A stretch of 64,000 nucleotides of DNA from the NCBI GenBank assembly GCA_963828125.1, contig CAWHDP010000002.1:1248001-1312000 (forward strand), in the 5' to 3' direction. Source of the stretch: an uncultured Chlamydiae bacterium. Its GTDB lineage: Bacteria > Chlamydiota > Chlamydiia > Chlamydiales > SM23-39. A program made the position numbers and the translations under genes. The notes under the pieces were generated by a model, which was given only the letters and a program-made list of their open reading frames with translations, searched no databases and was not told the DNA's origin. Positions 866 to 11,531 of this stretch are shown in pieces (position 1 is the stretch's first letter; each line of letters starts with the position of its first letter).

Positions 866-1879
866 ATGATCCGCTTGACCCTTGTTTTTCTCTTCGCCGC
901 ATCGGCGCAGTACGGAGCTCTTGAAGACATTTTTGTGGAACCGGAGCAGCACATTGTCCTTTCGCTCAAAAAAATCGAATTTGAAAAATTTCCAGAGGCG
1001 TTCAACCCCTCGCTTTTTAAACTCGATCGAGGGTATCTGCTCACGTTCCGCTATTGTCCTGACCGGATCCATCAAAATTGGTTCTCCTACATAGGCGTGG
1101 TTCTGTTGAATGAATTTTTGGAGCCTGCAGGGGAGCCAGAAATCCTAAACACGAGACCGAAAAATAGCAAGACCCCCTCTCAGACAGAAGACGCCCGGAT
1201 TTTTGCATTTCGAAATAAGCTATTTTTGATTTACAACGACAACATTAATGAGATTTTTTTCGATCAAGGGAAACGGCGGGACATGTTCATTGCCGAGCTT
1301 TTCTTATCCGGCCAAAAATATCAGCTCTCTTCTCCCTTGAAGCTTTTTTTCGAGGAAAAATACAATGTCCTGCAGCAAAAAAATTGGGTCCCCTTTGAAT
1401 GGGGCGGCCAGCTCTACTTTAGCTATTCGTTAAACCCCCATGAAGTGCTCTCTTGCAATTTGAAAAACGGCGTCTGCTATTCGGCCTACAAGTCGGCGCC
1501 GCCGATTCAGTGGCCCTATGGGACTCTTCGGGGGAGCACCCCAGCAGAGCTTGTCGACGGAGAGTACCTAGCCTTTTTCCACTCGGCCGCCAAACTCAAA
1601 TCGCCCGCGTCGTACGGCTGGAAGCTGTGGCACTATTTTATGGGCGCCTATACATTTTCTCCGACCCCCCCGTTCAAAATCACTAAAATGAGTCCAAAAC
1701 CGATTATGGCAGATGAATTTTATACGGCCTCTTACAGAGAAAAAAGGGTTGTGTTCCCTGGGGGGTACGTCGCGGCCGGTCCCCTCATCCATGTAGCTTA
1801 TGGAAAAGACGACTGCGAAATCTGGATCGCGACGCTCGACAAAGAAGCTCTATTGAAGTCCCTACAAACGGTAGATTAG
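866..1879 (+). CDS. Five-bladed beta-propeller GH130/Bmt(GT91)-like protein with N-terminal hydrophobic segment
   Basis: Motifs FNPSL, EDARIF, QKNWVPF, LRGSTP, VVFPGG and YGKDD. The start directly follows the upstream stop. Confidence 0.65.
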   Translation: MIRLTLVFLFAASAQYGALEDIFVEPEQHIVLSLKKIEFEKFPEAFNPSLFKLDRGYLLTFRYCPDRIHQNWFSYIGVVLLNEFLEPAGEPEILNTRPKNSKTPSQTEDARIFAFRNKLFLIYNDNINEIFFDQGKRRDMFIAELFLSGQKYQLSSPLKLFFEEKYNVLQQKNWVPFEWGGQLYFSYSLNPHEVLSCNLKNGVCYSAYKSAPPIQWPYGTLRGSTPAELVDGEYLAFFHSAAKLKSPASYGWKLWHYFMGAYTFSPTPPFKITKMSPKPIMADEFYTASYREKRVVFPGGYVAAGPLIHVAYGKDDCEIWIATLDKEALLKSLQTVD

Positions 1880-1903
1880 TTCAGTCCCCTTCGGGGCCTG
1901 AAC
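1879..1903. terminator. Hairpin with a cUUCGg tetraloop between convergent genes; also a dispersed repeat
   Basis: GTTCAGTCCCC-TTCG-GGGCCTGAAC followed by TTTTACTTTT. An inverted copy lies at about 29083-29104. Confidence 0.5.
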
Positions 1904-2699
1904 TTTTACTTTTGGGGTGGCCGCAGTATACAACCTCTTTTGCACGTAATGTCGGAAGGAGAGGAAAGCTCTGATCTAGCTTGTTTAAATCGATCTCTGG
2001 GGGGCGCTCCCCTTGGAACTCAAGGGCCTGGTGGACGGAGGTGGCAAACTGGAACGTCTCACGCCCCGTCCCCGCATAATAGTCTCGGAATTTAAAGAGC
2101 GACGTGTTCAAGTTCATCATCAAAAGCCGCGCCGGTACGCCAAAGGCCTCTGCGAGAATGATCCCGTGCAACGAACTGGATATGACCAATTTCGCTTTCA
2201 ATATTTTCCTTAAAATTTCATCCCAGCTCTCTGTTGGGTAGACGACATTTTTGTAGGGGAGGAATAAATACATCTCTGCTACATGGGGGATAATGATGTA
2301 TTCATATACCGGTTCTTCTCTTTTAAATTCAGGAAAATAGCGGGGAAATAAAAGGGTTGGATCTCCGTAAATCTCTGGACATTCGATCCCTAAATCCCAA
2401 AGGAGGCGCGCCGTCAATGGCCCTCTGACCGCATGGACTTCCAATTGCTTAAATTTCAAATCTGTCGTCCGCTCAAACAAAAATCCCGATCCCCAAATCA
2501 CATCTCCTTCCTCGGCGTGTTCGAGGATGGAGCCAATGCCAAAGAGCATTTTTTCCGGTGCGTGGGACAATGTTTCGCAAGGGATGCTTGCCCCGAGCAT
2601 CCGTTCTATTAACACTTTGGATAGATGATCTCCAAAATTGACGCTGCTATCATCGGGGCTCCACCAAAATAATTTCATCGCAAGAATTAAATAGATCAT
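1881..2699 (-). CDS. Polysaccharide pyruvyl transferase (ExoV/PssM-like)
   Basis: NFGDHLS, GIGSIL, IWGSG, VRGPLT, GDP, SSSLHGIILAEAFGVPA. The ATG at 2699 overlaps the upstream TGA (ATGA). Confidence 0.85.
   Translation of the reverse strand: MIYLILAMKLFWWSPDDSSVNFGDHLSKVLIERMLGASIPCETLSHAPEKMLFGIGSILEHAEEGDVIWGSGFLFERTTDLKFKQLEVHAVRGPLTARLLWDLGIECPEIYGDPTLLFPRYFPEFKREEPVYEYIIIPHVAEMYLFLPYKNVVYPTESWDEILRKILKAKLVISSSLHGIILAEAFGVPARLLMMNLNTSLFKFRDYYAGTGRETFQFATSVHQALEFQGERPPEIDLNKLDQSFPLLPTLRAKEVVYCGHPKSKSSGPEGD
1908..1935 (-). repeat. Half copy of the TATACTGCGGCCACCCCAAAAGT palindromic repeat
   Basis: The reverse complement GGTTGTATACTGCGGCCACCCCAAAAGT matches the left arm of the 23944 copy. 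Confidence 0.85.
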
Positions 2700-9319: not shown

Positions 9320-10197
9320 CTGTCCTCAATAGAAAGACCCATTTTTTTATACAAATCGGGCATAAATCGATAGATAGCCCTCTCGGGATCTTCGATCTCA
9401 TATCCGAGAGTGAAGAGCTCCTTTTGTTCTTTTTCAGAGAGAGTTGTGCTGTCGACGGGCGATATTTTTTTGATTTTGTCTAACTTCTGAAAACGCATCC
9501 GGTTTTGATATCGATTCACTTTCAGCGTCTTCCGTGGGATAGGGGTAGGTTCGACTCCCCCTTCGAATAGGCACTTGTATGGGGGCCAGGTAAAACCGGC
9601 GCACCGATCGGGATTCACAATGATTTTGGCGGCGCTCCTTTCGATGGGAATATCGGAATGGGAAGTCAATTCTACAGCTTCAATGACGAGCTTTCTTGGG
9701 GGAAGCACCCCTCGGCTCGAGGCGTCGAAAAGGACGCTCTCGAGAACAATGCCCGGACAATCGCTATATGGCTTTAAAAGCTCATCGATTTGAGTTTTAG
9801 AAGAGGGAACCAAAAATTCATCGATATCTAAAAAGAGGAGCCACCGCGTCTCTTTCCGGGCCATCCATTTGGCCGCATTTTCATAAGCCGTCACTTGTGT
9901 GCTTAAAGGCCATACGAATTGCCCATCGATCATCGGGCCTAAATGATCCAACCACTGAACTAACGTGACATAGCCGCTCAAAATATAGGGGTTGAGCACC
10001 TGTTTATACGCATCCAAACTCAAATTGTTATATAAATAAAAATGATCAACCCCGATGAGCTTATGGTATTCGATCCATTCCTTTAAATAAGGCGCCTCAT
10101 TTTTAAAAATGGCGCAAATAGACAAATTGTATTTTTTTGACTCCCCCGCCTCCAACAACAGCGCAAGACAAGCCATCCAAATCCAAACGATTCTCAT
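9316..10197 (-). CDS. Glycosyltransferase family 92 / DUF23-like (GT-A fold)
   Basis: [34 protein letters not shown] and FLDIDEFL (DxD). Probable start MRIVWIW at 10197. Confidence 0.8.
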
Positions 10198-10298
10198 TTC
10201 TTTCACCCTTTTGGAGAGAGGAGGATAAAGTTTCTCTTTGAATTTTTCAATGTTTTTCCAGTTTTTCATGGAATGGAGGAGCCGATCACTCGCCCCCC

Positions 10299-11531
10299 TC
10301 ATGAGCCCGCGTTTCTATCTGTTTTTTTAGATCGGGGTAACAAAGATTCTTGAGATCCTTTATCCACGGTTCTTTGTACATTCGGGAATGACTGCAGTTT
10401 TTCTAAGGGGAACATTCGATTGGATTCAGCTATTTTCCGCCATTCTTCAGGCAAAGCCGCATTCGCCAAAAGCTGATTGCACACATCGAGCGACTCTTGA
10501 TACTGTTCGACGTAATACGAACAGATCGACAGTTGAAAAAGGAGGCCGTAATCTTCAATCCAATCCATATTAAAGAGGCTATCTTTTTCTGCCGGTTTCG
10601 GGATACATTCCCTGATTTTCAAAATTTCATAGGCCTTAGCGTACTCTCCCATTGAATTGTACAGCTCTGCGAGAAAATAGGGGGCTTCAGCGCGATGAGG
10701 GCGGAATTGAAAGGCGTCTTTGAACCCTTCGATGACAATCGCATTCGGCAACTCTAAAGCGCGAAGCATCTGGCCGATTTGGAGTTTTGACCAGTAAATT
10801 TCTTCCTCCCATCCTCCCATTTTCACCCTCTTTTGAAACCATTCGAGAGCCTTTGCCCGTTCTCCCGCATCGCGATAGCTTTCAGCTAAATAGAACATGT
10901 AGCGCGAATGGTTGGGCTCTTTTTTTAACCCCTCTTCCAATAGACGGACATTTTTCCAATATTTTTCTGGATCGCGGCGGGTAGCTCCATCATCGATAGA
11001 GACGTATCGGACCCCCTCAAAAATAGCCGATGTAGTTTCAGAGTCGCATCCGAGGTATTCATGGGTCACCCCGATCCATTTCCAAGGCAAATTTCCTTTG
11101 ACGATTTGAGGTTTTAGATAGGAGAAACTTTGGGTTCCGCGCCACATGCTGTAGAGATCTTCGGTCAATTCAGGCATGGAGAACCCCTCATCGAATTCTA
11201 GAATATCGTCGGCGTCCATGAATAAAATATAATCGCCTTTTCCCTTGGCAGCCTCGAAGGCCTCTGAACGGGTCTCTCCCCAATTGATCCAAGGCCGTTC
11301 ATGGAGCTCTCCCGGAATCTCTTTCATATGTTCTTTGATGATCTCTTGGGTCCCGTCGATCGATCCGGTGTCTACGATCACCCAATAGTCGATGATCTCT
11401 TTTACAGAATCCAAACACCGGCGAATGATCGCCGCCTCATTTTTGACGATCATGTTTAGGCAAATCGTCTGTTGAGAGACGCCGAAAGAACTGAAAAAAA
11501 TCAATGAAAAAAGAATCAAAGTGCGATACAT
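10299..11531 (-). CDS. GT2 glycosyltransferase with TPR repeats (protein O-glycosyltransferase type)
   Basis: ICLNMIVKNEAAIIRRCLDS, VDTGSIDGT, MDADD, THEYL, followed by TPR-like helices (RYMFYLAESYRDAG). Confidence 0.85.
   Translation of the reverse strand: MYRTLILFSLIFFSSFGVSQQTICLNMIVKNEAAIIRRCLDSVKEIIDYWVIVDTGSIDGTQEIIKEHMKEIPGELHERPWINWGETRSEAFEAAKGKGDYILFMDADDILEFDEGFSMPELTEDLYSMWRGTQSFSYLKPQIVKGNLPWKWIGVTHEYLGCDSETTSAIFEGVRYVSIDDGATRRDPEKYWKNVRLLEEGLKKEPNHSRYMFYLAESYRDAGERAKALEWFQKRVKMGGWEEEIYWSKLQIGQMLRALELPNAIVIEGFKDAFQFRPHRAEAPYFLAELYNSMGEYAKAYEILKIRECIPKPAEKDSLFNMDWIEDYGLLFQLSICSYYVEQYQESLDVCNQLLANAALPEEWRKIAESNRMFPLEKLQSFPNVQRTVDKGSQESLLPRSKKTDRNAGS

Follow-up and report, generated by a model that had tools for sequence, protein, structure and literature searches.

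Putative Export Leaders on the Glycan-Modifying Enzymes of a Chlamydial Locus with BclA-like Collagens

Introduction

Glycosylation outside the bacterial cytoplasm uses, to our knowledge, lipid-linked donors or sucrose, and we know of no nucleotide sugars, S-adenosylmethionine (SAM) or ATP in the periplasm. Here we describe a gene locus of an uncultured Chlamydiota bacterium, which encodes glycosyltransferases, methyltransferases and collagen-like proteins and lies partly in a stretch of 64,000 nucleotides (the window; C2:1248001-1312000) of a 2.37 Mb, 95% complete genome. Most genes of the locus begin with a short hydrophobic leader. Judged from sequence, these leaders resemble export signals, are conserved and are restricted to intracellular lineages.

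BclA of Bacillus spores is glycosylated on threonine residues by enzymes that are not known to carry leaders. The collagens of the present locus share with BclA (PDB 1wck, 2z5w and 9h38) the G-X-T-rich repeats, the C1q/TNF-like C-terminal domain and the neighboring glycosyltransferase genes. However, in this locus both the fibres and the enzymes have leaders, the bacterium is intracellular and non-sporulating, and the identity of the C-terminal domains is 16-19%.

The nearest precedent for nucleotide-sugar enzymes outside the bacterial cytoplasm is the glycogen synthesis of Chlamydia trachomatis. According to the accessible part of Gehre et al. 2016 (PMC4829429), GlgA works in the inclusion lumen on host UDP-glucose, which is brought there by SLC35D2. 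In the same part of that source, GlgA and GlgB are described as type III-secreted proteins without signal peptides that produce a storage polymer, whereas here leaders of the Sec type are found on many enzyme families and a surface glycoprotein is predicted as the product.

Several enzymes of the locus also resemble described families. The GT2 domain of the GT2-TPR protein matches enzymes of the SunS/GmaR type (PDB 7msn and 22ao; E 6e-8 and 1.5e-12) and retains the DxD motif, but the protein is far under the cut-off of the SunS equivalog TIGR04195 (37 vs. 350 bits). The beta-propeller enzyme shares its fold with GH130 mannoside phosphorylases, the Leishmania GT108 enzymes (MTPs) and Candida Bmt (GT91), with a TM (template modeling) score of about 0.63 to GH130 and 0.54-0.57 to MTPs; the identity is 11-17% and the sequence falls under both Pfam cut-offs. 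STELLO and GT92 belong to the same Pfam families as the type II Golgi proteins of eukaryotes, and an extracytoplasmic, transporter-fed compartment is predicted here too; unlike the long Golgi anchors, the leaders are short and of the cleavable type. For Chromulinavorax (Dependentiae), the accessible text of PMC6561590 gives a putative signal peptide on 44% of coding sequences; the word "glycosyl" is absent from its main text, where no glycosylation pathway is described. A literature search of incomplete coverage, with supplements outside its scope, returned no report of signal-peptide-bearing glycosyltransferases in chlamydiae or Dependentiae, and no signal peptide is mentioned in the accessible part of the paper on the Parachlamydia GT6 enzyme (PMC3516806). 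Exported chlamydial nucleotide-sugar enzymes and BclA-type glycoprotein loci are already known; the present case adds a candidate substrate that resembles BclA, a clade of STELLO-N that spans two phyla and leader-bearing enzymes for 3'-phosphoadenosine-5'-phosphosulfate (PAPS) and GDP-fucose.

Leader Sequences of the Locus

The locus begins at L001:9345, which lies about 8.7 kb upstream of the window, and ends at window position 13638. Leaders were called by hydropathy (at least 2.5 over 8 residues close to the start), a crude rule that over-calls and is not a trained predictor. Among the 17 enzyme genes, the leader was clear in 15, doubtful in one (pyruvyltransferase) and absent from one, a methyltransferase of the Methyltransf_24 type (MT24); all collagen genes (3/3) carry a leader as well. 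The same rule was positive in 323 of the 1806 open reading frames (ORFs) of the genome, taken as the background, in 2/38 ORFs near the ribosomal-protein cluster and in none of the 12 GT4 ORFs. The binomial probability of 15 out of 17 is about 6e-10, a value that is overstated because the paralogs are not independent.

In the original prediction, hydrophobic N-termini were noted on the propeller enzyme (start at 866, forward strand), MT24 (ATG at 3394), STELLO-N (4427), STELLO-C (5323), GT92 (ATG at 10197) and GT2-TPR (11531), and all six were found as quoted, ahead of the catalytic domains. Most starts abut or overlap the preceding stop codon: the start at 866 comes right after the stop at 865, there is an overlap at 4427/4424, and the starts at 5323 and 11531 are each 7 nt past the upstream stop. 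True starts downstream of the leaders, also considered in that prediction, were ruled out, since the homologues retain the leader and share no downstream methionine; in GT2-TPR, the next ATG falls within strand 1. Two caveats concern GT92, which a further ATG at 10302 would lengthen by 35 residues, and STELLO-N, where an in-frame Met17 is located just past the leader and is not kept in homologues. It was also ruled out that the leaders of the locus enzymes are the first beta-strand of the fold, as Pfam ranges and strand motifs place them before the catalytic domain. This artefact accounts for four false positives of the rule among the other GT2 proteins of the genome; by eye, 4/12 of its GT2s have a leader, half of them encoded in this locus and half in a second cluster described below.

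Most leaders of the locus contain K/R near the start, then 12-16 uncharged residues and usually D/E after them. The uncharged stretch has this length in five of the six enzymes listed above; in GT2-TPR it reaches 26 residues and runs into strand 1. In 99 homologues of STELLO-N, the n-region was positive in 84 and negative in one, the first charge past the h-region was D/E in 77, and uncharged stretches had a median length of 17. By this crude rule, the basic n-region, short h-region and polar c-region before the mature domain that characterize Sec/signal peptidase I (SPI) substrates were found in the window locus and in the 99 homologues. The locus leaders do not have the build of a Golgi-type anchor, i.e., an uncleaved transmembrane segment of about 17-22 residues followed by a stem. 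Leaders of the same build as those of the locus occur on envelope proteins of the genome (BamD-like, LptE-like and GspD).

Just upstream there is a gene for a CBAH-family hydrolase, in which a leader of 15 residues precedes Cys16, the start of the Pfam match. Enzymes of this family require a free N-terminal cysteine, and since the leader directly precedes it, the short leaders are probably cleaved. SPI is present in the genome. Given the short uncharged stretch with K/R before and D/E after it and the presence of SPI, we infer that the leaders are cleavable peptides of the Sec/SPI type rather than Golgi-type anchors. Export through the twin-arginine (Tat) pathway was ruled out, as TatC was not found in the 95% complete genome and none of the called ORFs matched a twin-arginine motif within residues 1-40. 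Separately, some GT2-TPR homologues of chlamydiae (L018, L024 and L036) seem, by eye, to carry lipoprotein-type leaders with a lipobox-like Cys in place of SPI-type leaders.

The same leaders could be read as uncleaved tethers by which the enzymes stay close to Sec at the inner membrane, facing the cytoplasm, with glycosylation being cytoplasmic as in other bacteria. The donor synthases of this genome are indeed cytoplasmic, the leaderless MT24 is conserved within the operon, and GT92 homologues of other bacteria are tethered by basic amphipathic N-termini. We nevertheless regard such tethering as improbable: the charge asymmetry of the STELLO-N homologues (84 and 77 of 99, as above) predicts that the C-terminus is outside, an uncharged stretch of 12-16 residues is short for stable anchoring, some homologues of GT2-TPR have lipobox-like leaders, and the CBAH control implies cleavage.

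Conservation and Distribution of the Leaders

The leaders are conserved in character and not in sequence. For STELLO-N, the best 120 of 3343 matches were analyzed, and a leader was present in 105 of the 112 homologues that could be scored by motif, the window copy included; among the 8 unscored ones, five have a leader by eye and three are truncated. The propeller enzyme carries a leader in 101 of its best 120 homologues (of 1068). GT2-TPR was found in 128/300 Chlamydiota genomes and in 0/29 genomes of one family, presumably Chlamydiaceae; in its top 30 loci, 28 of the 29 scorable copies have a leader. Leaderless copies of this protein include two from a Parachlamydiales record and the homologues from Thiothrix and Cupriavidus. 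For MT24, a leader was called in 25/33 proteins from Chlamydiota loci, and the misses include three domains of longer fusions and two orthologues of the leaderless MT24 of the operon.

To evaluate the distribution of the STELLO-N leader over lineages, the best 80 of 252 loci with a named source were compared, of which 79 were usable after one truncated sequence had been dropped. A leader was found in 24/79 and not in the other 55, from other bacteria, which begin at or near strand 1 (L092 and L123 were placed there by hand despite high scores). The 24 leader-bearing loci come from Chlamydiota (5), Babeliales/TM6/Dependentiae (9), unlabelled sources (8) and "Pseudomonadota" (2); one of the latter has its Gmd in common with a locus from the search of the phylum Babelota. 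A quick tree, rooted at the midpoint, places the leader-bearing sequences and the window copy in one clade with a support of 100 (Shimodaira-Hasegawa-like approximate likelihood ratio test, SH-aLRT), in which Chlamydiota and Babelota are interleaved. The nearest named relatives of the window copy are Chlamydiales, which, together with the four NTT nucleotide translocases of the genome, suggests a placement in Chlamydiota.

Leader counts were also compared across lineages for GT92 and the pyruvyltransferase, with the sequences grouped by hand. In the GT92 set (82 sequences), the leader occurs in 20 of the 26 complete sequences labelled as chlamydial, in 2/37 from other named taxa and in 16/18 with absent or ambiguous labels; one sequence was truncated. 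In the case of the pyruvyltransferase, counted in the loci where the motif could be placed, it occurs in 7/7 scored chlamydial sequences vs. 3/57 others, and five more close matches, unlabelled or labelled as Verrucomicrobia, also score for a leader. The chlamydial homologues have full leaders, unlike the window copy. For STELLO-N, GT92 and the pyruvyltransferase alike, the closest relatives found without a leader are ordinary enzymes of bacteria, in a comparison whose trees were built without eukaryotic sequences. The link of STELLO and GT92 to the eukaryotic Golgi, which the original prediction had drawn, is therefore not supported for the enzymes, and "Golgi-like" is valid for the predicted compartment only.

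Collagens as Candidate Acceptors

Each of the three collagens contains about 150 G-X-T-rich triplets, with GPT being dominant, and 125-146 threonine residues. Modeling of the C-terminal domain of collagen 1 using AlphaFold 2 led to a confident model (predicted local distance difference test, pLDDT, 91.6), whose best match was the C-terminal domain of BclA (1wck, TM 0.83); collagens 2 and 3 have a BclA-type domain by sequence similarity. The domain was found in 27/300 Chlamydiota genomes; a few weak matches are without repeats. In the 26 other genomes with the domain, GT2-TPR is present in 23, compared by hand with a background of 128/300, and among the matches listed it lies at most 10 kb from the collagen domain in at least 9 of them. 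These observations make the collagens a candidate acceptor of the glycans.

The enzymes could also be exported but act on something else, for example lipopolysaccharide or lipooligosaccharide, a capsule or a host glycan, with the collagens being mere neighbours. GT2-TPR is far more widespread than the collagen domain (128 vs. 27 of the 300 genomes), and no collagen was found at the STELLO loci of Babelota or in two further leader-rich clusters of this genome. Such an acceptor nevertheless seems very unlikely to us, because the close linkage of GT2-TPR and collagen recurs in at least 9 genomes and the collagens combine 125-146 threonines each with the architecture of BclA.

Donor Supply and Related Leader-Bearing Pathways

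The original prediction looked to the host or to a transporter for the donors, and the genome is in part consistent with this. Four full NTT nucleotide translocases and eight double-EamA genes were found; one of the latter is at the cut-off of Nuc_sug_transp, which is not diagnostic. MetK was not found in the genome, so that SAM must be imported. A double-EamA protein, SAMHT (CTL843), is described as a SAM importer of chlamydia in the accessible part of PMC3104491. Next to STELLO-N and STELLO-C in a leader-rich locus (L121:8874-9794), there is an EamA protein that weakly matches Nuc_sug_transp (E 3e-4) and is a candidate donor carrier.

Two further leader-rich clusters were found in the genome. 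The second one (C2:994-1005 kb, L147) contains two GT2, GT6, GT11 and several unassigned ORFs, with leaderless GT4 and epimerases mixed in. In the third one (C2:1358-1374 kb; L148:940-13966 and downstream), leaders are carried by four sulfotransferases, GT77-like and GT32-like proteins, an adenylylsulfate (APS) kinase and an AdoMet decarboxylase; genes for a major facilitator superfamily protein, an EamA protein and leaderless CysN/CysD-like proteins are located in the same cluster. The PAPS pathway of this sulfation cluster appears to be split across the inner membrane.

At STELLO loci of Babelota and chlamydiae, leaders are found on GT2, GT6, GT10 and GT32-like proteins, FkbM/TylF methyltransferases, a DegT aminotransferase, a sulfotransferase, Gmd and Fcl. 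With a threshold of 1.8 and matches ranked by a leader-bearing query, the Gmd leader was called in 9/29 Babelota and 21/32 Chlamydiota sequences; Fcl is leader-bearing in many of the same loci, and one genome has Gmd both with and without a leader. No match to Gmd was found in the source genome. Most leader-bearing Gmd sequences (L150-L209) have LIFG or LIIG in place of LITG as the first motif, which suggests a distinct clade common to Chlamydiota and Babelota. For APS kinase/Sat-CysC (L210-L239), a leader was called in 24/30 chlamydial sequences (the locus edge truncates two of those scored without one), and most Sat-CysC sequences retain the HxxH motif; leaders on these enzymes imply the use of ATP outside the cytoplasm.

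A wide-ranging interpretation of these loci is that environmental Chlamydiota and Babelota run a complete Golgi-like extracytoplasmic compartment, in which glycosyl-, methyl-, sulfo- and pyruvyltransferases and the enzymes of GDP-fucose and PAPS synthesis, all with Sec signals and traded between the phyla, would use ATP, SAM, NAD(P)H and nucleotide sugars that reach the periplasm from the host and would place methylated glycans on BclA-like fibres. We put this forward tentatively, as somewhat doubtful in its full extent.

Proposed Pathway

For the locus itself, we lean, with modest confidence, towards Sec-exported nucleotide-sugar and SAM enzymes that modify the BclA-like fibres outside the cytoplasm, with the periplasm or the envelope as the likeliest site and with host-derived donors. 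The leaders would act as Sec/SPI signal peptides and the enzymes would cross the inner membrane unfolded. The collagens would be exported by Sec as well and meet the enzymes at that site. There, GT2-TPR would put the first sugar on Thr/Ser of the G-X-T repeats, GT25, GT92, STELLO and the propeller enzyme would extend or edit the glycan, the MT24 enzymes would O-methylate it and the pyruvyltransferase would cap it; this order is taken from knowledge of the families. Such a pathway is feasible because host ATP, other nucleotides and SAM are expected to pass through the periplasm of this energy parasite on their way to inner-membrane carriers of the NTT/EamA type. Nucleotide sugars could come from the host, or from the bacterium's own leaderless synthases via a carrier of the drug/metabolite transporter (DMT)/EamA type. 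Glycosylation outside the cytoplasm, as originally predicted, is therefore retained as the best reading of conserved and lineage-restricted leaders, and the type II Golgi anchor that went with it is given up, since the leaders are short, run from K/R to D/E and are of the cleavable type.

A number of observations weigh against this pathway. No dedicated nucleotide-sugar transporter or exporter was identified in the genome, and its donor synthases are leaderless (epimerases 0/10, NTP transferases 0/3). The pyruvyltransferase of the locus (1881-2699), which the original prediction had not listed, has a vestigial leader of just 6-8 residues, the MT24 without a leader has orthologues in L455 and L456 that are leaderless likewise, and leaderless chlamydial copies of GT2-TPR or GT92 occur in L007, L364, L370, L384 and in a paralog of this genome (C2:280904). 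The leader of STELLO-N may reflect one gain and not many independent ones, and the homologue sets consist of top-ranked matches, so that close kin are over-represented. Localisation is predicted here from hydropathy, and the enzymes and collagens are put forward as partners on the basis of gene linkage and the BclA-type architecture. In addition, genes of a type II secretion system (T2SS), gspD/E/F, are present, and the enzymes may thus travel beyond the periplasm.

The last point leads to the main alternative explanation, in which Sec export is followed by T2SS or vesicle secretion to the inclusion lumen or the host cytosol, where host UDP/GDP-sugars, SAM, ATP, NADPH and phosphoenolpyruvate would be available and the targets would be secreted or surface collagens or host molecules. 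Besides gspD/E/F, it is in agreement with the accessible part of PMC6717882, according to which Sec and type II secretion bring CPAF, HtrA, CT311, CT795 and Ptr into the lumen or cytosol, and with the SLC35D2-dependent entry of host UDP-glucose into the lumen (PMC4829429, in part). Relatives also have leaders on NAD(P)H- and ATP-dependent enzymes, whose cofactors are richest in the host cytosol. On the other hand, the collagens traverse the periplasm anyway, a multi-step pathway would be poorly suited to a dilute lumen, and the same STELLO clade exists in Babelota, for which the accessible text of PMC6561590 mentions only Sec and vesicles. We therefore consider onward secretion unlikely, while giving it some weight.

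If activity in the periplasm is true, it would be near a new category. A Sec-exported pathway based on nucleotide sugars, SAM and PAPS, shared by two phyla that are unrelated and live as symbionts inside protists, would be an exception to the rule on donors given at the beginning of this text, and energy parasites would build their envelope with host metabolites that they have yet to import. Such a pathway would also partly explain their large secretomes with signal peptides and point to a hitherto undescribed glycoprotein coat that may govern host recognition.

Genes and Protein Families of the Locus

The upstream part of the locus (L001:9345-18865) contains four GT25 genes, three MT24 genes, two unassigned enzyme-like ORFs and a GT2-TPR-propeller fusion, and every gene there has a leader except one MT24. 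The 714-aa fusion starts at L001:16721 with a signal-peptide-like leader, and its C-terminal propeller part reaches into the window (2-865, forward strand). The leaderless MT24 (L001:12282-12962) overlaps the stop codon of the upstream GT25 gene, and its N-terminus resembles the C-terminal motif of GT25; three relatives (L434, L443 and L451) are longer proteins ending in MT24. This suggests that the leaderless MT24 is the product of a split fusion. Motifs that we take to be catalytic are intact in GT2-TPR, GT92, STELLO-N, GT25, MT24 and the pyruvyltransferase.

The leader-bearing GH130/GT108-like propeller enzyme (866-1879, forward strand) is a candidate mannosyltransferase, phosphorylase or hydrolase. 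It scored 24.1 bits with GH130 (PF04041; cut-off 26, E 2e-5) and 20.1 bits with Bmt/GT91 (PF12141), under the cut-off of 28.3. The AlphaFold 2 model (pLDDT 95) has GH130 and Leishmania MTP as top Foldseek matches, and its fold is like that of GH130/GT108 enzymes, so that the kinship with Bmt/GT91 in the original prediction is not supported. No match was found in PDB sequence searches with the propeller or the collagen C-terminal domain; the likeness is visible in the folds. Three more GH130-like propeller paralogs (C2:915255, C2:951628 and C1:273341), each with a hydrophobic leader, are located outside the glycan clusters.

The remaining genes of the locus are on the reverse strand. The polysaccharide pyruvyltransferase (1881-2699, PF04230) with its short, doubtful leader is followed by the leader-bearing class I SAM methyltransferase MT24 (2696-3394, PF13578), which has GxG and HIDGNH motifs. 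STELLO-N (3384-4427), a glycosyltransferase with a leader and a DxD-type motif, scored 57 bits with PF03385 (cut-off 27.8). The STELLO-C-like protein (4424-5323) has its own leader and is slightly under the same cut-off (26.5 bits); leaders occur on homologues and neighbours, including some in Dependentiae. The GT92-family glycosyltransferase (9316-10197, PF01697; 85.5 bits vs. a cut-off of 23) has a leader, with its DxD motif present as DIDE and the alternative ATG at 10302. GT2-TPR (10299-11531), a leader-bearing protein glycosyltransferase with a SunS/GmaR-like GT2 domain and a DADD motif, is the candidate initiating enzyme on collagen Thr/Ser; a viral origin was considered and rejected, as no relative was found in viral contigs searched with it. 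The leader-bearing BclA-like collagens are located at 5331-7319 (collagen 1, a candidate acceptor with about 150 triplets, 146 Thr and the BclA-type C-terminal domain), 7319-9319 (collagen 2, 125 Thr) and 11539-13581 (collagen 3, 131 Thr).

Other Genes in the Window

The protein encoded at 27378-28958 has a leader and a domain of the Peptidase_S74 type, an intramolecular chaperone. Its neighbours are a GH18 protein (22684-23925), an autotransporter (24073-26157) and a porin of the Legionella-OMP type (26312-27358). A 2823-aa protein with a signal-peptide-like leader was found at 31848-40319. The region 41541-57969 contains, as judged by eye, integrase-, transposase- and DNA-handling-like ORFs and is probably a mobile island.

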